Shown here: positions 306 through 61,158 of the stretch, piece by piece
How the letters are laid out: the number at the start of each line of letters is the position of its first letter
How positions within the stretch are numbered: the stretch's first letter is position 1
Origin: a virus
Lineage: Duplodnaviria > Caudoviricetes
Length of the DNA stretch: 64,000 nucleotides
Reading direction: 5' to 3' (one strand)
Virus record (IMG/VR): IMGVR_UViG_3300031673_000001
Made by a program: the position numbers and the translations under genes
The notes under the pieces: generated by a model
The model's input: the letters and a program-made list of their open reading frames with translations, nothing else
The model's database searches: none
Told to the model about the DNA's origin: nothing

Positions 306-3300
306 TTAAAATAAAATAACCTCATTTTTCTTTTCTTCTATTGCTTTGAATAATGGTTTTAAGAATAATGCATGTCTATCTTCAAATGTAAATTTTAATG
401 TTGACTGAACATCTGGAATAAAATAATGTGGTAATTTTTCTTCTTCATCTGGAATTGCTATTACTTCCAATTTTTTACCTCCAGATATAAATTTATGATA
501 CTTTTCTAAAACATCTTTTGGCGCTTTATCAATATCTATTCCTTTCACCCAGTATAAATAACCCTTTGCACCTGTGCGATGAATATCATACATTATACTA
601 TTCCATGCCTGCATACTTCTTACTCCCTGTGGAACCATTTTATAATCCTCTAATTTTTTACCCCATGATACAGGTCTACCAATTTTCTTATCCCCATTTC
701 TTATCATTTCTACAAAATCTCTTTTGCTTCTATTAATAAAATCCATAATTTTAGGAGGTGACATCTTTTCAGATTTTGACTTTAATAAAAGTTCAGATAA
801 CTCTATTAAAAATTCTTTTGATTTACTTGGATAATCAGATCTTTTAATTTCAACTCCCATAAAATTAGTTTTATCAACTTCCTTCCCTTCATTATTTACA
901 ACATGAATTGCATATCGTTTTTTAGCAAGAAATAATCCTCTTGAAATAATTAACTCATTTTTTAATTTCAATCTGTTATACTCTAAATTAACATTATATC
1001 TCTTTACAACTTCAGCAATTTTATCATTATTTAAAAAATCTTCTATTTTATCACACCATTTACGAATATTATCAATCGTTTTCTCTTCCACAAAATTTTC
1101 AAACTTACAAAAAATTGAATCTGTATCTCCAGTTATAATGAAATCGTTTGATCTGTCAGGTAATGTATATAACTCTGGTTCTGCCTTTGGATCTGCAAAC
1201 ATTTCTTCTTTTGTTAAAGTCTTTGGTTTTATATACTCTATTCCTGTTGCCATACTTCTCATTAAAGCATCGCCTTCAATAATTGAAGTTTTCAATGCTT
1301 CTTGACCAGTCAATGTGATTGCTGATGCTAGTGATAGATCATAAAATCTAAATGACTTGTTTGCAACAACCCCATATAAAGTATTTGCTAAAACCTTATA
1401 AACAAGTTGTCTTGTATAAAAGAATTTTTCTGCATTCTTATCTTTCTTTTCAATAGCATCAAACATCTGACTTTTATATGTATCACGAGATGACATTAAC
1501 ATCTCGACTACTTCTCCAAACACAGAAAACTTTTTCTTATGCGAGTTAAAAAAGCATCCATTAACTGTATAAACTAACTCTTTTTCTTTTATCAATTTCA
1601 ATAACCCATTTTTATCAATTTCTACAAGTTCTTTCTTATATAGAGGATCAACAACTACACTTATTTTATCTGGCAACTTTTCTGGATTATATGCAATATC
1701 ATATCCAAGATGCGGATTGGTTGTTTTCATTACAAAACTATTAATACCAATATTATAAGTAATCATTAAACTTGGATACAGAGACTTAAAATCAAAATCT
1801 GTTATCCAACTATAAAGTCCAGGTATTGGTTCATAGACATAAGCTCCAGGATAACTTTCTTTTGAAATGTGTGGATCAGAATTTTTAGAAGCTATTCCCT
1901 TACTTCTTAAATATGAAACCATCAATGAATCAATCTGCCCCATAGATGTGACAGAATCAAAACTTGTATTACAAATAATTCTCAATTCATTTAACAAATT
2001 AATATGACCTAATTTATCATCTAATTCTTTTAACAATTCTGTATCTCGAATATTATACTTAATCGTCATATTTAACTTCTGCCAATACATCTCATTGAAG
2101 GACAACGGCAATTGAATTTTTGTACGCCCCAGCTCACTCTCTGCAATAAATCCAAGTTTATAATTTTCCATTTTTGTAAATGTAAATGTTCTATATAAAA
2201 AATCTTGATCAATAGCAACACATCCAGGAATTAAACAAATCCATCTTGCACCATCAACAAAAAATTCCCCAAATTTTGTCATTAAAGTATCAGGTATTTT
2301 TAAATTTCTAATTCTATTAAAAATGTATTGCATATCAAAACTAATTAAATTCCATCCAGAAATAAAATCAGGATCAGTATCTCTAAAATCTTTCATAAAT
2401 GTACGCAACATCTTATTTTCATCTTTTATATCAAAAATCTTATAAACAACACCATCAACTTTTTCTATTGGTTCAGTTTTATTATCAAGAACATAAGTGG
2501 TTGTAACACCATTATAAATTGATGTAAACATATTTATTGAAAACTCTGCTTCTATTGGACTTGGAAAGATCTTTTCTTTTCCAGTATCAATTTCAATATC
2601 AAAAAACATAACATTAGATTCTACCTTTGGAGCATCCCCTTTGTTAAAATGATAATAATCCATAGCATGTTTAGTTGTTATTCTAATATCCCCTTCATAC
2701 GTTATATCTGGATCTAATTGATTTCTATCTCTATATGATAAAGAAATTTGTTTAAGATCTTCATAAGGAATAATCTTTCTTGCTTCAACTCCATCTTTTA
2801 TCTGATAACAAATATATTCATCACTTTCTGTATGATAAATTTTTTTATTATTTCTATCTCTAAAAATATAAAGAACCTCTTGCTTTTTACTAATAAATTG
2901 AACATCAATGAGTCTGTAATCGTCTGTATAAAACTTCTCTGGAATCTTATATCTGTATATGCCTTCTCCAATTTTCTTCTCATTAACTTTAAATGATACG
3001 TCTGAAACAACGCCATTTAACAAATCTGAAATTTTTAACATATCTTCTTCAAATTTTGGTTCCCATACCTTTAAATTTCTATTAGCAAAAGAAGGATGGA
3101 TTGTTAAAAAAACTTTAAATCCTTCCCATTCAAACGTTTTACCATGAAGATTAGTTATACCCGATTTAGCAATGCCAAATGCACTCATAGGAGTTGCACC
3201 CATCAAAACAATCAACTTTGGTTTACATTGTCTAATAATTTCCATACAATTCATTTTACATCTTTCAATAACATCTGGTTCTGGATTGCCAGTTGTTTTA

Positions 3301-3581
3301 TCTGGATTTATTGTCTGACATAAAACTGTATTTGTTAGAAGATATTTTACTTTATTTAATTCATATTTTGCAAAATATTTTCTAAACATTCTGCCTGACT
3401 TACCAACCAACGGTGCTGGTTCTGGTTTTTTGGCAACCTCATTCTTACCAGGATTCTCTGCTACAAATACAATTTCAACCTGTGTAAGATCAACTTTTGA
3501 ATTTGTTTCTAGAATACAAGAAGGAGCATCTAATAATTGACAAGTTGAGCAATCAGCAAAAGAATCTTTAATTGAAATCAT
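306..3581 (-). CDS. Family B DNA polymerase with N-terminal family-4 uracil-DNA glycosylase domain
   Basis: UDG4: CxxC, FVAENPG, LVGKSG, LTNTVLC, LMGA, TIHPS. PolB: ExoI FDIEID, ExoII GWNLISFD, ExoIII YNIRD, motif A DFDFKSLYPS, motif B KVLANTLYG, motif C GDTDS, and AKKRYA. Confidence 0.95.
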   Translation of the reverse strand: MISIKDSFADCSTCQLLDAPSCILETNSKVDLTQVEIVFVAENPGKNEVAKKPEPAPLVGKSGRMFRKYFAKYELNKVKYLLTNTVLCQTINPDKTTGNPEPDVIERCKMNCMEIIRQCKPKLIVLMGATPMSAFGIAKSGITNLHGKTFEWEGFKVFLTIHPSFANRNLKVWEPKFEEDMLKISDLLNGVVSDVSFKVNEKKIGEGIYRYKIPEKFYTDDYRLIDVQFISKKQEVLYIFRDRNNKKIYHTESDEYICYQIKDGVEARKIIPYEDLKQISLSYRDRNQLDPDITYEGDIRITTKHAMDYYHFNKGDAPKVESNVMFFDIEIDTGKEKIFPSPIEAEFSINMFTSIYNGVTTTYVLDNKTEPIEKVDGVVYKIFDIKDENKMLRTFMKDFRDTDPDFISGWNLISFDMQYIFNRIRNLKIPDTLMTKFGEFFVDGARWICLIPGCVAIDQDFLYRTFTFTKMENYKLGFIAESELGRTKIQLPLSFNEMYWQKLNMTIKYNIRDTELLKELDDKLGHINLLNELRIICNTSFDSVTSMGQIDSLMVSYLRSKGIASKNSDPHISKESYPGAYVYEPIPGLYSWITDFDFKSLYPSLMITYNIGINSFVMKTTNPHLGYDIAYNPEKLPDKISVVVDPLYKKELVEIDKNGLLKLIKEKELVYTVNGCFFNSHKKKFSVFGEVVEMLMSSRDTYKSQMFDAIEKKDKNAEKFFYTRQLVYKVLANTLYGVVANKSFRFYDLSLASAITLTGQEALKTSIIEGDALMRSMATGIEYIKPKTLTKEEMFADPKAEPELYTLPDRSNDFIITGDTDSIFCKFENFVEEKTIDNIRKWCDKIEDFLNNDKIAEVVKRYNVNLEYNRLKLKNELIISRGLFLAKKRYAIHVVNNEGKEVDKTNFMGVEIKRSDYPSKSKEFLIELSELLLKSKSEKMSPPKIMDFINRSKRDFVEMIRNGDKKIGRPVSWGKKLEDYKMVPQGVRSMQAWNSIMYDIHRTGAKGYLYWVKGIDIDKAPKDVLEKYHKFISGGKKLEVIAIPDEEEKLPHYFIPDVQSTLKFTFEDRHALFLKPLFKAIEEKKNEVILF

Positions 3582-8736: not shown

Positions 8737-8823
8737 GCCACCGTCGCTTAGTGGACGATAGCGCTGGATTTGTAATCCAGAGATCCTTGATCCTCGTAGG
8801 TTCGAATCCTACCGGTGGCTCCA
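8737..8823 (+). tRNA. tRNA-Thr(UGU) with atypical long variable arm
   Basis: GCCACCG/CGGTGGC acceptor; CTGGA-TT TGT AA-TCCAG; 15-nt V region AGATCCTTGATCCTC; CCA. Confidence 0.88.
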
Positions 8824-9734: not shown

Positions 9735-9892
9735 CCACTATGAGTATGTTTAATACTGATCATTGCTGTCTTGAATGTATAGATAAAGAGAAGAAACATC
9801 CAGATTATAAATATGCTAAACAAATGGAATTATTAGCAATTGAAACTGGTAATTATAACTTTCCAGGAATTGGATTACCAGATGATTTATAA
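9677..9892 (+). CDS. Small Zn-finger-like hypothetical protein
   Basis: CQRC...CLEC; start uncertain. Confidence 0.55.
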   Translation: MGSSWSDGKCQRCQKETTITTMSMFNTDHCCLECIDKEKKHPDYKYAKQMELLAIETGNYNFPGIGLPDDL

Positions 9893-9896
9893 ATTT

Positions 9897-9973
9897 AGAG
9901 GCGTTGTCTAGCGGTCCAAGACACAAGACTTTGACTCTTGTATTCGTAGGTTCAAATCCTACCGCCTCTTCCA
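9897..9973 (+). tRNA. tRNA-Gln(UUG)
   Basis: CAAGA-CT TTG AC-TCTTG; CCA. Confidence 0.92.
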
Positions 9974-10030
9974 AACAAATGAAAGGAGAATTTATAAAGT
10001 GTGAAAACCTGTAAAGATGAATAATATTAA

Positions 10031-10114
10031 GGGGGAATAGACGAACTGGTCCAGTCAAGGGATTTAAAATCCCTGCTTAAGTGCGTCCGGGTTCAACTCC
10101 CGGTTCCCCTACCA
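10031..10114 (+). tRNA. tRNA-Leu(UAA)
   Basis: AGGGA-TT TAA AA-TCCCT; long V arm; CCA. Confidence 0.92.
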
Positions 10115-10135
10115 AAAGTGAAAGGACTATATTAA

Positions 10136-10483
10136 ATGAAAGTTTATACAGAAATTCATACACCATTCAGTTTTGGCGCAAAATATGCATATATCAAAAC
10201 TGAAATTGAAGAATATCAAAGAATTGATATTGGAAAAGGATATTTTGGAATCCTCTTTAAAAATCCTTCCAGAAAACTATGGCATATAGTGCAAGAGGAC
10301 TGTGGAGCTCTTATTGGAACTAATAAATCAAAATCTAAACTTATTAAATCTGTATTAAATGATGTTGCAAGTGGGGATACTAAATTAATGCAAGAACAAA
10401 TTGAAATCGGAAAAAAGCAAATGTCCCAAGCTCATTCTCTTGAAAGAGATGAATGGTTCAAACGTTTTCCAAAATCTAAGTAA
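10136..10483 (+). CDS. Hypothetical protein
   Basis: 115 aa, SD AAAGGA. Confidence 0.65.
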   Translation: MKVYTEIHTPFSFGAKYAYIKTEIEEYQRIDIGKGYFGILFKNPSRKLWHIVQEDCGALIGTNKSKSKLIKSVLNDVASGDTKLMQEQIEIGKKQMSQAHSLERDEWFKRFPKSK

Positions 10484-11620: not shown

Positions 11621-11709
11621 TGCGGGGTAGAGTAGTCCGGTCCAACTCGCTGGTCTCATAAGCCAGATCTCGAAAGAGAACGTGGGTTCAAATCCCACCC
11701 CCGCTACCA
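11621..11709 (+). tRNA. Initiator-type tRNA-Met(CAU) with long GAAA-capped variable arm
   Basis: U1-U72 mismatch, C3-G70, A11-U24; CTGGT-CT CAT AA-GCCAG; V arm TCTC-GAAA-GAGA; CCA. Confidence 0.88.
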
Positions 11710-16654: not shown

Positions 16655-16938
16655 CAATCTCTGATATGGTATCAAAAGTATTTGAGAAACAATTATTACC
16701 TTGTAAAAACTGTTTCGTTCAACCAATATGTCAAACTAAAACTCCATGGAATCATAGATTTAGAATCTGTAGCAGATATATAAAATATAGACAAAATATT
16801 AATACATACAAAAATATATTAGAAACTCTTCGCACGTGTATAACACTTTTTATAATCTTCTTAATTTTTCTTTATATAATAGTAACATTTTTTATGGGTC
16901 TAATTCATCAATATCTTTTAATTTTTGAGGGCGTATAG
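16651..16938 (+). CDS. PCxxC-family small protein with C-terminal TM helix
   Basis: PCKNCFVQPIC; the TAG stop lies inside the downstream tRNA-like RNA. Confidence 0.6.
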   Translation: MTISDMVSKVFEKQLLPCKNCFVQPICQTKTPWNHRFRICSRYIKYRQNINTYKNILETLRTCITLFIIFLIFLYIIVTFFMGLIHQYLLIFEGV

Positions 16939-17011
16939 CTCAGTGGTAGAGCACCTTGGTCAATTGCTATCACCTTGGAGGTCGATGGTTCGAATCCATC
17001 TACGCCTAACA
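16929..17011 (+). tRNA. tRNA-like RNA with expanded anticodon arm and no CCA (pseudo-tRNA; Val-like body)
   Basis: Canonical acceptor GGGCGTA/TACGCCT, D arm GCTC-AGTGGTA-GAGC, AGGTC and T arm; anticodon arm about 8 nt too long; ends AACA. Confidence 0.6.
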
Positions 17012-17207: not shown

Positions 17208-17296
17208 GGGGGGTGTTCCTGTTGCTGGGCTGTAAACTCAGTGTCATAAAACATATAGGAGGGTGACGAGAGGTTCAATTCCTTCGCCCCCCACCA
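17208..17296 (+). tRNA. Atypical tRNA-Tyr(GUA)-like RNA lacking a conventional D arm
   Basis: GGGGGGT/GCCCCCC acceptor; CTGGG-CT GTA AA-CTCAG; T arm TTCAATT; A73-CCA; only 10 nt between acceptor and anticodon stems. Confidence 0.75.
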
Positions 17297-17317: not shown

Positions 17318-17560
17318 ATGAAAAACCCATGTGACATATGCATTTGTAAGGTAATATGTACTGAAATATGTCCAGAAAAAGAAAACTATCTAACATTAAT
17401 TAAAAATGCTATTATCCAAAATTCTTATTCAAAAAGAGGAATTCGAATACCAAAAAATGATAATTTTAGAAAATATCTTGAAATGCAACAACAACATTTC
17501 AAAGATACAGCGAAAATCAATGTGAGAAATTATAAGAAGAGGGGAGGAATGATTTCATGA
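17318..17560 (+). CDS. PCxxC-family small protein
   Basis: NPCDICICKVICTEICP. Confidence 0.65.
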   Translation: MKNPCDICICKVICTEICPEKENYLTLIKNAIIQNSYSKRGIRIPKNDNFRKYLEMQQQHFKDTAKINVRNYKKRGGMIS

Positions 17561-18756
17561 TCCCGTATCAAGGAAAATATGGAAAAGCTTCTGTAATGCT
17601 TAACGAACTAAACGATCAGAATACTATTAGTCAGATATATGAATTTTTAAATCATCCAGCATTTACAAATCCAATTGCTATCATGCCAGATTGTCATTAT
17701 GGAAAGGGTGCTGTAATTGGATTTACAATGGAAATGACTGATATGATTATTCCAAATATAGTCGGGGTCGATATTAATTGTGGTATGCTTTCTCTATTTC
17801 TTGGACCCAATGCTTTAGAAAAATTAACTATCGAACAAATTGATCAGAAAATAAGACAAAAGATTCCCTTATCAAAACATGTCCATCAAGAAGTAACATT
17901 ATCTCATCATATGCTAGACAATTATTTTTGGAAACATGCAAGCTATAATCACAAACATTTTACCTTACAATATAATAAACGATATGGAACCAAATATGAT
18001 CCATTTAAATTTGATATTGATTGGTTTGAAGATAAATGCAAACAAATCAAAATGGATTTTACAAGAGCTTTATCATCTATTGGAACCTTGGGAGGCGGAA
18101 ACCATTTTTTAGAACTGGGTAAATTAGTCAATCGAAAAGAATACCTTTTCACAATCCATTCAGGATCAAGACAATTTGGATTGAAAGTTTGTGATTACTG
18201 GCAACGAAAAGCTGGAAAAGGTCATTTAGCATATTTGACCGGAGATGATATGTTTGGTTATCTTACAGATATGGTATTTACCCAAATATATGCACAAACA
18301 AATAGAGAAGCAATGGCAACGATCATTGAACGTATTTTTGATATTCAATCTTATAAGACGATTGAAACATGCCATAACTTTATAAGTATTCAAGATTTTA
18401 TTATTCGCAAAGGTGCAATAGCTTCTTATAAGGAACATCAGATGATCATTCCATTAAACATGGAAGATGGTTTATTAATATGTGAAGGAAAATCAAATCC
18501 AGAATGGAATTATTCAGCTCCCCACGGAGCAGGAAGAATTAGTTCAAGATCTAGTATTAAAAGAAAAATGAAAGAAAAATCATCCGCTGAAATTGTTCAA
18601 GAACGAATGAAAGAGAAAGGAATATACATATCAGTAGTTCCATTGGATGAAACAAAAGAAGCATATAAAGATCCAAAACTAATTGAAGATACTATTGACC
18701 CAACTGCATCAATTATTGATCGTGTAATGCCTGTGCTCAATATTAAAGCAATTTAA
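17557..18756 (+). CDS. rtcB: RNA 2',3'-cyclic-phosphate/3'-phosphate ligase RtcB
   Basis: MPDCHYGKG, GVDINCG, GTLGGGNHF, HSGSR, HN, RKGA, SAPHGAGR, EAYKD. Confidence 0.95.
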   Translation: MIPYQGKYGKASVMLNELNDQNTISQIYEFLNHPAFTNPIAIMPDCHYGKGAVIGFTMEMTDMIIPNIVGVDINCGMLSLFLGPNALEKLTIEQIDQKIRQKIPLSKHVHQEVTLSHHMLDNYFWKHASYNHKHFTLQYNKRYGTKYDPFKFDIDWFEDKCKQIKMDFTRALSSIGTLGGGNHFLELGKLVNRKEYLFTIHSGSRQFGLKVCDYWQRKAGKGHLAYLTGDDMFGYLTDMVFTQIYAQTNREAMATIIERIFDIQSYKTIETCHNFISIQDFIIRKGAIASYKEHQMIIPLNMEDGLLICEGKSNPEWNYSAPHGAGRISSRSSIKRKMKEKSSAEIVQERMKEKGIYISVVPLDETKEAYKDPKLIEDTIDPTASIIDRVMPVLNIKAI

Positions 18757-20286: not shown

Positions 20287-20364
20287 GGTCCAGTAGCTCC
20301 AGTGGTTAGAGCAGGAAACTCTAAATTTCCGTTTGCGAGGGTTCGAATCCCTCCTGGACCACCA
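20287..20364 (+). tRNA. Amber suppressor tRNA (anticodon CUA)
   Basis: GGTCCAG/CTGGACC acceptor; GCTC/GAGC D stem; GGAAA-CT CTA AA-TTTCC; GAGGG-TTCGAAT-CCCTC; A73-CCA. Fully canonical fold. Confidence 0.92.
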
Positions 20365-25163: not shown

Positions 25164-25239
25164 GGGGGTGTAGCTCAGTTGGGAGAGCGCTGCTTTTGCA
25201 CGGCAGAGGTCGCAGGTTCGATTCCTGTCACTTCCACCA
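25164..25239 (+). tRNA. tRNA-Ala(UGC)
   Basis: G3-U70; CTGCT-TT TGC AC-GGCAG; CCA. Confidence 0.95.
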
Positions 25240-60141: not shown

Positions 60142-61158
60142 CTATTTTCCCATTCCTTTAACATCTGCAATAGTTCTAATAAGTAAACCATTGGCAACAG
60201 CAGTCAAAGGGTTTTTAGCTCGTCGAATCTCTGATACTTCAAATGGTAATTCTTTCTGCATAATTATTTGTCTAAATAAAGTTACAAATCCCTCTGGTAA
60301 AGAAGTTCCACCTGAAATTACAATTGGAATAGCATCATCCAATTCAATATCAGCTTTATCATTAAATTCTTTTATTATTTTTTTAATTGTATATTCAATC
60401 AATGCTTTATGATAATAAAATAAAGCTTCTAACATTCTTTTATCTTTTTTATTTTTAATGTTGACTTCGCCCTTTAACTTCATATACTTTTCTTTTTTAT
60501 TAGTAACTCTATTTACAACTACACCCATATCAGCAGCTACTTGTTCATCAATCCAATCTCCAGCTCTAGCTGTTGAAAATTTCAATACTTCAATACCTTT
60601 ATAAGCTATTGCAGCATTTGCCATACCAGCACCAAAACTAATACCAATTCCACTAAATTTTTCCTTTGCACACTCTGAAAATATAATTGCCATAGCTTCA
60701 TTTACAGATGTATGGTTAACACCCAAACTATTTAAAATTCTTGCAAATACACCTTCGTGATAAGTTATAGAACGTTCATTGTCAATGGACTCTGCTGGAA
60801 TTGAATATGAACAATACATATCTTTATCTTTTGTTTCACCAATCAAATCTTTAATAATCAATGTTAAAACATCAATAGCATTAATTTCCTTGGATGAAAT
60901 AAGACCCTTTTCCATAGGTCTTGAAACTTTTTGACCTAACATATTTGCTAACTCAAAAGCATGAGATCCAATCACATAAGTTTCACCTTCACTACTTTCA
61001 ACATAACTTATATCAGCAATATCTGGAATATCATCTTTATCTACTTCTAAAAATACATTTCTTGTCATTCTTATATCATCTGAATCAGATCTAGCACAAA
61101 CAATATTCATCGTACCAACATCGAGACCTATACAAGAAACCTTTGATTTCTCGCTCAT
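60142..61158 (-). CDS. Actin-like ATPase (MreB/ParM/FtsA superfamily)
   Basis: Phosphate-1 IGLDVGTMN; phosphate-2 ISFGAGMAN; adenosine VISGGTS; AVANGL. Confidence 0.85.
   Translation of the reverse strand: MSEKSKVSCIGLDVGTMNIVCARSDSDDIRMTRNVFLEVDKDDIPDIADISYVESSEGETYVIGSHAFELANMLGQKVSRPMEKGLISSKEINAIDVLTLIIKDLIGETKDKDMYCSYSIPAESIDNERSITYHEGVFARILNSLGVNHTSVNEAMAIIFSECAKEKFSGIGISFGAGMANAAIAYKGIEVLKFSTARAGDWIDEQVAADMGVVVNRVTNKKEKYMKLKGEVNIKNKKDKRMLEALFYYHKALIEYTIKKIIKEFNDKADIELDDAIPIVISGGTSLPEGFVTLFRQIIMQKELPFEVSEIRRAKNPLTAVANGLLIRTIADVKGMGK

Follow-up and report, generated by a model that had tools for sequence, protein, structure and literature searches.

The tRNA-like gene at positions 17208-17296 (+) of the window, by which we mean the whole 64,000-nt stretch of viral DNA that was analysed, is a real member of a conserved and apparently undescribed class of tRNA-Tyr that does not fold into a cloverleaf. 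The structure of this class is well supported by covariation, and its function is inferred. The gene probably encodes a functional, host-charged elongator tRNA-Tyr(GUA) in which a rewired 6-bp helix takes the role of the D stem, both charging and decoding being inferred.

The gene is 89 nt long with its CCA included, as delimited from the sequence and from the covariance model R1. Read from the sequence, it has a GUA anticodon and an encoded A73-CCA, and the full RNA is 5'-GGGGGGUG UU CCUGUU G CUGGG CUGUAAA CUCAG U GUCA UAAAACAUAUAGGAGGG UGAC GA GAGG UUCAAUU CCUU CGCCCCCC A CCA-3'. As the original prediction had stated, only GUUCCUGUUG (17215-17224) lies between a 7-bp acceptor stem (GGGGGGU/GCCCCCC) and the anticodon stem, and a GUCA...UGAC stem (17243-17246 and 17264-17267) is present between the anticodon and T stems. 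ARAGORN called 25 tRNAs in the window; this gene was not among them, and a GTA anticodon is absent from all 25. The Rfam tRNA model (RF00005), which scored 24 other tRNAs of the window at 34-68 bits, had no match at 17208-17296, even at E <= 10 on 201 bases. The best Rfam match of the gene was tRNA-Sec (RF01852), with 29.6 bits, below the gathering score of 47. A nested minimum-free-energy fold gave an 8-bp acceptor stem, the anticodon arm, the extra arm and a 4-bp T stem, and left UUCCUGUU single-stranded; its stability was not significantly above that of shuffled sequences (z = -1.05), and the program used cannot model pseudoknots. When the gene was compared with R1, a covariance model built from 73 members, a full-length match of 87.5 bits was obtained (E 1.6e-24), the window sequence being itself in the training set.

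The window looks like part of a large phage. Its G+C content is 31%, the standard code reads well, and its genes encode a family B DNA polymerase fused to a UDG domain, a DNA-ligase-like protein, many glycosyltransferases, a B12-radical SAM protein, an actin-like (Volactin) protein and a PAS response regulator. Matches of the window at the DNA level were weak and only to phage RtcB genes, including that of a 735-kb uncultured phage. The 25 ARAGORN tRNAs form a same-strand array with small ORFs between them (8142-30125, +), in agreement with the Rfam scan. Seventeen amino acids are covered by this array, those missing being Tyr, Val and Trp, and one of its tRNAs is a CUA suppressor. The gene for an RtcB RNA ligase (17557-18756, +; Pfam PF01139, E 6.4e-55) is found 260 nt downstream of the rewired tRNA gene, behind an 80-aa Cys-rich ORF (17318-17560).

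An exact 26-mer of the gene had no match in IMG/VR, and neither did a back-translated scan for RtcB. Syntenic relatives were reached by a protein search with RtcB (74-89% identity) together with contig look-ups. On the four syntenic contigs (L001-L004), the odd gene was found in an identical position, preceded by a small ORF and followed by the Cys-rich ORF and RtcB. We then scanned IMG/VR with a pattern made of the 5' part, the anticodon loop and the T loop, which gave 12 contigs, and with a pattern covering the 3' half only, which gave 19 contigs, 9 of them common to both scans. The 3'-half pattern, applied to bacterial and archaeal genomes taken one per species, gave 64 loci, of which 58 were labelled Planctomycetota. 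In total, besides the four syntenic relatives, the layout is found in about 20 more phage contigs and in 58 Planctomycetota genomes. The Planctomycetota carriers belong to Pirellulales, Planctomycetales, Phycisphaerae and Kuenenia and include two Bremerella isolates, the cultured strains being Bremerella cremea JCM 17758 and Bremerella sp. JC770. Here too, ARAGORN called none of the rewired genes in the homolog loci scanned. R1 gave 75-104 bits for the relative L012, whose sequence is that of the training member L006, and for independent Planctomycetota hits. In a sample of 151 Planctomycetota genomes, an intact copy was found in six and a decayed copy in one (G103), the latter having lost the 5' helix strand and having an acceptor that no longer pairs. 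Intact copies in six of 151 genomes indicate that the class is patchy, as expected for accessory arrays. The genes flanking the Pirellulales array encode sulfatase, Ser/Thr kinase and TPR proteins, and one DDE transposase gene lies at a distance of 9.5 kb. Since no integrase or phage genes were seen beside it, we do not call this array mobile.

The members found by R1 always have a GUA anticodon, with no pattern forcing it. When IMG/VR was scanned for the same architecture with a non-G34 anticodon, no real member was found, the single match being an accidental overlap with a normal tRNA. A UAU anticodon was seen in one rewired-looking gene, in the genome G010, whose class consists of only 2 genomes. 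No relatives of this gene were found: the IMG/VR scan gave 4 chance matches, the first metagenome scan gave 0, and the 36 matches of its T-arm 19-mer were all unrelated.

The original prediction proposed that a pairing between the extra-arm loop and the truncated D region replaces the D stem. Both homologs and covariation of this replacement pairing were found. Alignment A1 holds 73 distinct sequences, and the structure counted on it comprised five helices, including the pseudoknot. Overall, 96.3% of the cells were paired, versus 81.6% in shuffles, and the covariation score was 0.436 versus 0.143; the observed values were reached by 0 of 500 shuffles, and slid-register controls gave 40-57% of cells paired. 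The GUA anticodon and an AGGWGG motif were imposed by most search patterns, and their invariance in A1 is therefore partly by construction. In the replacement helix (columns 11-16 with 51-56), 97.5% of the cells were paired, with changes on both sides at 3 of the 6 pairs. C-G is invariant at pairs 11-56 and 12-55. Pair 14-53 is CG in 58 sequences, GU in 5, GC in 4, AU in 3, UA in 2 and UG in 1, and pair 15-52 is AU in 42, GC in 23, UA in 4 and CG in 3. In the phage sequences alone, pair 14-53 occurs as five pair types and is paired in 14/14 without a mismatch. Pair 13-54 changes from U-A to C-G in Planctomycetota members that were found by R1 rather than by a fixed pattern, and the helix variants found by R1 include CCCCAU/UGGGG, CCCCCC/GGGGGG, CCCCUC/GAGGGG and CCCGCG/CGCGGG. 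Opposite halves of the helix were constrained in the searches, the 3' partner strand being left free in the phage scan and the 5' strand in the genome scan, and the replacement pairing held in both scans despite the free partner strand in each. The changes among the syntenic relatives can be recognised as compensatory by simple inspection: the helix reads CCUGU/AUAGG in the window, CCUGCU/AGUAGG in L003 and CCUACC/GGUAGG in L002.

The extra-arm stem (columns 36-38 with 63-65) behaves likewise. Among the syntenic relatives it changes from GUCA/UGAC to GUCG/CGAC and GCC/GGC. In A1, pair 36-65 is G-C in 71/73 and pair 38-63 is C-G in 73/73, with a middle pair 37-64 that is UA in 52 sequences, CG in 13 and GC in 6, with one mismatch; the fourth pair is variable and is unpaired in 32/73. 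Since the extra-arm stem and the replacement helix both covary, in phage as well as in bacterial homologs, both are under selection and together form a pseudoknot. The proposal of a pseudoknotted fold in place of the D stem is thus supported, and the place of the D arm holds just 8-10 nt in all 73 sequences, with no contiguous D stem-loop. The exact register proposed needs one correction. The 6 bp between AUAGGA (17255-17260) and UCCUGU (17217-17222) can indeed pair, but U10-A53 is not a conserved pair: it is specific to the window, being formable in 1/73, and C-A stands at this place in L001, the closest relative. The helix that is conserved consists of nt 11-16 with nt 47-52, of which the window keeps 5 conserved pairs, in addition to its private U10-A53.

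Along the RNA, the parts of the structure are as follows. The acceptor stem is formed by an 8-nt 5' strand, GGGGGGUG (17208-17215), pairing with CGCCCCCC at 17285-17292 (helix 1 of the structure count). In the 73 sequences, all 8 of its pairs change on both sides, 99.1% of the cells are paired, and pair 8-84 is G-C in 71/73. This last pair, between G8 and the C that follows the T stem, can form in 73/73, versus 5/73 for the alternative fifth T pair 68-84, which indicates that the branch is 8/4 and not 7/5. A 9-bp stem, obtained by pairing nt -1 (U) with A73, was rejected: position -1 varies (U, C, G) without compensation, and CCA follows A73. A 2-nt linker, UU (17216-17217; A1 columns 9 and 10), leads from the acceptor stem to the replacement helix; column 9 is U, C or A and column 10 is U in 64/73. 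The 5' strand of the D-replacement (pseudoknot) helix, CCUGU(U) at 17218-17223, pairs with (U)AUAGG at 17254-17259 in the extra-arm loop. In the window, the pairs are C-G, C-G, U-A, G-U and U-A, followed by a U-U mismatch.

The anticodon arm (17224-17242) is supported by covariation and consists of G17 (position-26-like), the stem CUGGG/CUCAG, the loop CUGUAAA with the GUA anticodon at 17232-17234, and U35 (position-44-like). All 6 pairs of its helix (columns 17-22 with 30-35) change on both sides, and 96.8% of the cells are paired. The extra (variable) arm follows, with the 5' strand GUCA (17243-17246) pairing with UGAC at 17264-17267 (helix 4 of the structure count). Its loop begins with an A-rich part, UAAAACA (17247-17253), the corresponding A1 columns 45-47, 49 and 50 being A in 54-66 of the 73 sequences; we infer groove contacts as the role of this segment, without any test. 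Right after the 3' strand of the pseudoknot helix, there is a conserved GG (17261-17262), recognised from column conservation (column 58 is G in 72/73 and column 59 in 73/73) and kept in 14/14 phage sequences from a search pattern that did not require it. We infer that this GG is a candidate equivalent of G18-G19, docking on the T loop. The window has A in column 57, which is U in 71/73. The T arm (17270-17284), again supported by covariation, has a 4-bp stem, GAGG/CCUU, with a closing G-U and the loop UUCAAUU; its stem (columns 69-72 with 80-83) is 96.6% paired, and the T-loop consensus is canonical (UUCRAUU). The sequence ends with the discriminator A73 and the encoded CCA (17293-17296), the discriminator A being nearly invariant across A1. 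Altogether, of the parts first taken to be normal, the anticodon arm, the T loop and A73-CCA are so, and the acceptor/T branch is not, being 8/4 and not 7/5.

To define what is particular to this class, we compared it with the known tRNAs that it resembles. The closest is the canonical class II tRNA-Tyr, as found in Bremerella (L088:1469-1551) and in a phage (L006:2122-2203). Both forms have GUA in CUGUAAA, G1-C72 and A73, and they share a long extra arm, a canonical T loop, a similar length (82-89 nt) and the same genomes, in which they are sometimes only about 40 nt from each other. In the canonical tRNA-Tyr, the D hairpin carries GG in its loop, the branch is 7/5 and the extra arm measures 13 nt, whereas the rewired form has no D hairpin, an 8/4 branch and an extra arm of about 30 nt, the loop of which supplies both the GG and the strand that pairs. 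Judged by connectivity, the retained strand replaces the 3' strand of the D arm (22-25); by sequence, the UUCC after the acceptor resembles U8-U9-C10-C11 of canonical tRNA-Tyr genes. As evolutionary routes, relocation of a strand and deletion followed by acquisition of a new partner are either possible.

The (8/4) tRNAs, or allo-tRNAs, have an 8-bp acceptor, a 4-bp T stem, a long extra arm and a 6-bp D stem (Mukai et al. 2017, PMC5389517) and occur in bacteria, phages and polycistronic tRNA clusters (PMC5389517). They are Ser, His, Cys or Sec-like species with a contiguous D stem-loop closed by a tetraloop, and neither a Tyr member nor a pseudoknot is reported (PMC5389517). The 8/4 branch is therefore common to both, and the rewired class differs by a D-type helix made from two distant strands and by its Tyr identity (GUA, A73, G1-C72). 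The tRNA-Sec has a longer acceptor stem, a 6-bp D stem, possibly a 6-bp anticodon stem and a long extra arm (PMC7609411). The rewired gene differs from it in having GUA and not UCA, a branch of 12 bp (8/4) and not 13 bp, and no D hairpin. The combination of an 8/4 branch with a D-type helix of 6 bp and a long extra arm also characterises tRNA-Sec and allo-tRNAs, in line with the weak tRNA-Sec match of the gene. Finally, D-armless mitochondrial tRNAs, such as mt-tRNA-Ser(AGY), have no D hairpin between the acceptor and anticodon stems (PMC9427863, PMC7609411). These are short organellar molecules with a connector loop, a relaxed structure and adapted partner proteins; the rewired class is of full length, bacterial or phage-borne, and has its helix rebuilt with a remote strand. 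No description of a bacterial or phage tRNA of such a kind was found in full-text searches of the literature, and the class is absent from the allo-tRNA paper (PMC5389517), from a 2020 review of non-canonical tRNAs (PMC7609411), and from a phage structured-RNA survey and a tRNA-array survey (PMC4758250). A match to a described tRNA class, which would have refuted the original prediction, was not found.

We propose the following fold for the RNA. The 8-bp acceptor stem and the 4-bp T stem still make the usual 12-bp branch. After the 2-nt linker, six nucleotides (5 of them paired in the window) pair with a strand in the extra-arm loop, and the 3-4 bp stem of the extra arm forms simultaneously, creating the pseudoknot. 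Strand 11-16 would run via G17 into the anticodon stem, with a G17-U35 pair resembling the 26-44 pair. We infer that the replacement helix may stack on the anticodon stem in the manner of the D stem of a normal L-shaped tRNA, the loop strand occupying the place of residues 10-15 of a 6-bp Sec-type D stem. The GG at the G18-G19 place is in turn inferred to dock on the unchanged T loop and to form the elbow. The linker from G8 would enter the helix at its far end, which is the end that adjoins position 8 in a normal tRNA.

Several observations bear on whether the RNA works as a tRNA-Tyr. The bacterial Tyr identity set is present, namely GUA, A73, G1-C72 (69/73) and a long, though remodelled, extra arm, and CCA is encoded in the window gene and in many phage copies. 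In the phage contig L010, the rewired gene lies between tRNA-Cys and tRNA-Phe in a 23-tRNA array without another Tyr. In the Pirellulales chromosome G003, it is 6 and 4 nt from its neighbours within an array that spans 5 kb, holds 34 ARAGORN tRNAs and lacks any other Tyr. Two phage records with a completeness rating of 100% (G157 and G160) have no GUA tRNA besides it. The hint of function drawn from its place in the window thus holds, the gene taking the Tyr slot of near-complete arrays. The class Ic synthetase domain PF00579 (TyrRS family) was absent from 5 large phage records carrying the gene, 4 of which are at least 96% complete, while 14/14 control genomes scored in the same search. In the absence of a phage TyrRS, charging would have to be by the host enzyme. 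We infer that a bacterial-type TyrRS of the host charges the RNA, since G1-C72, A73 and G34-U35-A36 are kept and these phages lack TyrRS. The rewired tRNA may in this way supply Tyr decoding for the expression of phage or tRNA-array genes.

The rewired gene is the only one with a Tyr anticodon in the window, as first claimed, but this does not hold generally. A canonical class II tRNA-Tyr, located in a Thr-Tyr-Gly-Thr cluster, was present in 5/5 Planctomycetota genomes checked, and a second tRNA-Tyr(GUA) gene was present in 3/5 phage genomes checked, at a distance of about 50-120 nt in two and of about 0.7 kb in the other. This coexistence indicates that decoding of Tyr does not always depend on the rewired form alone and that this form could have another role.

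Such a role could be that of an RNA that folds as described and does not decode, acting as a tRNA-Tyr decoy or sponge (for example against a tRNA-Tyr nuclease) or in another tRNA-dependent process outside the ribosome. The coexisting canonical tRNA-Tyr in the five Planctomycetota and in several phages would be compatible with this, as would the RtcB RNA-repair ligase that adjoins the gene in the window; moreover, an overexpressed phage tRNA-Tyr partly protects host tRNA-Tyr from Septu (PMC13096335). We nevertheless regard it as unlikely, because all decoder features are kept (the 12-bp branch, the canonical T loop, CUGUAAA, G1-C72, A73 and often CCA), a pure decoy would not need an intact acceptor end, and the gene occupies the Tyr slot of near-complete arrays and is the sole GUA tRNA in the two complete phage genomes. 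Still a little less credible to us is a working tRNA-Tyr in which the helices are alternative conformers, for example with only the 11-16/47-52 helix formed, which would leave a long internal loop in a three-way junction. In favour of this, the stem of the extra arm is short, with 3 firm pairs and a fourth that is unpaired in 32/73, and U35 can pair with either G17 or G61, the counts not separating these options. However, the middle pair of this stem covaries cleanly between two invariant pairs, which suggests that the stem is selected in the same molecules as the other helix, and the joining loops (7-13 nt and 4-5 nt) are long enough for both helices.

We consider it very improbable that a tRNA-Tyr has decayed here into a pseudogene, or that a normal D arm is missing only through an error of the tools or of the assembly. 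It is true that the tRNA finders do not call the gene and that a truly decayed copy exists (G103), but the layout and its compensatory changes recur across independent assemblies, in phages and in 58 bacterial genomes including isolates, and the keeping of covarying helices indicates that it is not a pseudogene. We retain a charged and decoding tRNA-Tyr with both helices formed as the preferred reading.

Why a tRNA-Tyr should be rewired can only be approached by hypothesis. Cleavage of tRNA-Tyr in its variable arm is the means by which retron-Eco7 PtuAB and Septu stop phages (PMC11555353, PMC13096335), and the tRNA-Tyr genes of the phages T5, T6 and SP15 overcome retron-Eco7/Septu (PMC11555353, PMC13096335). 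The T5 tRNA-Tyr resists cleavage owing to its distinctive variable loop (PMC13096335). These tRNAs are phage-borne like the rewired gene, but they are cloverleaves. The rewiring could be a design for immune evasion, in which the variable arm is locked in the pseudoknot and cannot be recognised by Septu or PtuAB, while the host TyrRS, EF-Tu and the ribosome would still accept the pseudoknotted tRNA-Tyr. We put this forward tentatively, as a possibility without any test. Evasion would explain why the architecture is restricted to Tyr in the phage and array sets examined, why it is carried by phages and accessory arrays, and why it is often positioned beside a canonical copy or replaces it.

According to a 2024 paper, all known bacterial tRNAs are cloverleaves. 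This statement would fail if the class is charged and decodes. The class would then be a natural pseudoknotted tRNA with a D-type helix made from two distant strands, and the rearrangement of the tRNA core would be tolerated while still fitting RNase P, TyrRS, EF-Tu and the ribosome. If evasion is true, no earlier natural elongator tRNA of bacteria and phages would combine a non-cloverleaf fold with a defined selective reason. Tyr was reported to be among the rarest isotypes in a survey of tRNA arrays (PMC4758250). Because the class escapes the standard finders, the number of tRNA-Tyr genes in phage genomes and bacterial tRNA arrays is systematically underestimated, with consequences for how tRNA complement and codon adaptation are estimated. 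The Planctomycetota copies found in cultured strains make direct experiments possible. The class is also a candidate as a natural scaffold for orthogonal tRNA engineering, and it offers a test case for defence nucleases shaping the architecture of tRNA.

Some further features were noted around the rewired tRNA-Tyr, in which a pairing between the 5' strand and the extra-arm loop replaces the D hairpin. Directly downstream of it, at 17318-18756 of the window, an ORF of 80 aa rich in Cys is followed by a gene for an RtcB RNA ligase, and the order rewired tRNA-Tyr, Cys-rich ORF and RtcB is retained in the four syntenic phage relatives (L001-L004). This placement of RtcB suggests that a tRNA repair function is located within the tRNA array. 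The minus strand of the window also encodes a family B DNA polymerase of 1091 aa with an N-terminal uracil-DNA-glycosylase domain (306-3581) and, in a block rich in glycosyltransferases, a protein strongly matching Volactin, an archaeal actin-like family (60142-61158, E 1.6e-74). Another phage contig carrying the rewired tRNA-Tyr, L009, also holds a tmRNA with the tag ADDYNYAVAA (9793-10140, minus strand).

Some other tRNAs of the window array were also noted. The tRNA-Met(CAU) (11621-11709, 89 nt) and the tRNA-Thr(UGU) (8737-8823, 87 nt) both fold with a long, class II-like extra arm, which is unusual for both isotypes. Comparable lengths were observed in relatives, with a tRNA-Met of 91 nt in L003, and a tRNA-Thr of 88 nt and a tRNA-Met of 90 nt in the phage contig L007. 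An 80-nt gene without an encoded CCA (16929-17008) was called tRNA-Ala(UGC) by ARAGORN; its anticodon arm is irregular and apparently longer, with CACCUUGG repeated. A normal tRNA-Val(UAC) occupies the syntenic place in L001 and L003, and the window contains a second tRNA-Ala(UGC) at 25164-25239. Finally, a well-formed amber suppressor tRNA with a CUA anticodon (20287-20364) is kept in L002-L004. Complete TAG recoding is not evident in the window, since reading TAG as sense lengthens its ORFs only slightly.

Variants were also detected in Planctomycetota. The rewired tRNA-Tyr at G103:C78:5428-5509 (locus L112), which scores 46.7 bits, is decayed, with a deleted 5' helix strand, a lost acceptor pairing and an altered T loop. 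An allo-tRNA-type tRNA-Ser(UGA) with an 8/4 branch occurs in one tRNA array (L120:4409-4492, corresponding to L114:21-104); it has a normal D hairpin of 5 bp, a discriminator U and an encoded CCA. In another array, where 27 tRNAs were called, a plus-strand gene of 84 nt that was not among them (L119:4862-4945, corresponding to G010:C24:31861-31944) lies between tRNA-Ile(GAU) and tRNA-Asn. Its layout is of the rewired type, with an 8-bp acceptor, a 4-bp T stem and a GGCGG, within a CUCC/GGAG extra arm, that pairs with CCGCC. The anticodon loop is CUUAUGA (UAU, Ile-AUA type), the T loop is UGCAAAU, and the two G's conserved after the pseudoknot helix strand in the rewired tRNA-Tyr are absent. 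It scores 38.7 bits with R1, the covariance model of the rewired class, and a canonical tRNA-Tyr is also present in the array. As searches of IMG/VR and a first metagenome scan found no relatives, this gene remains a lone sequence without covariation support. Should the gene prove genuine, rewiring would extend beyond Tyr.
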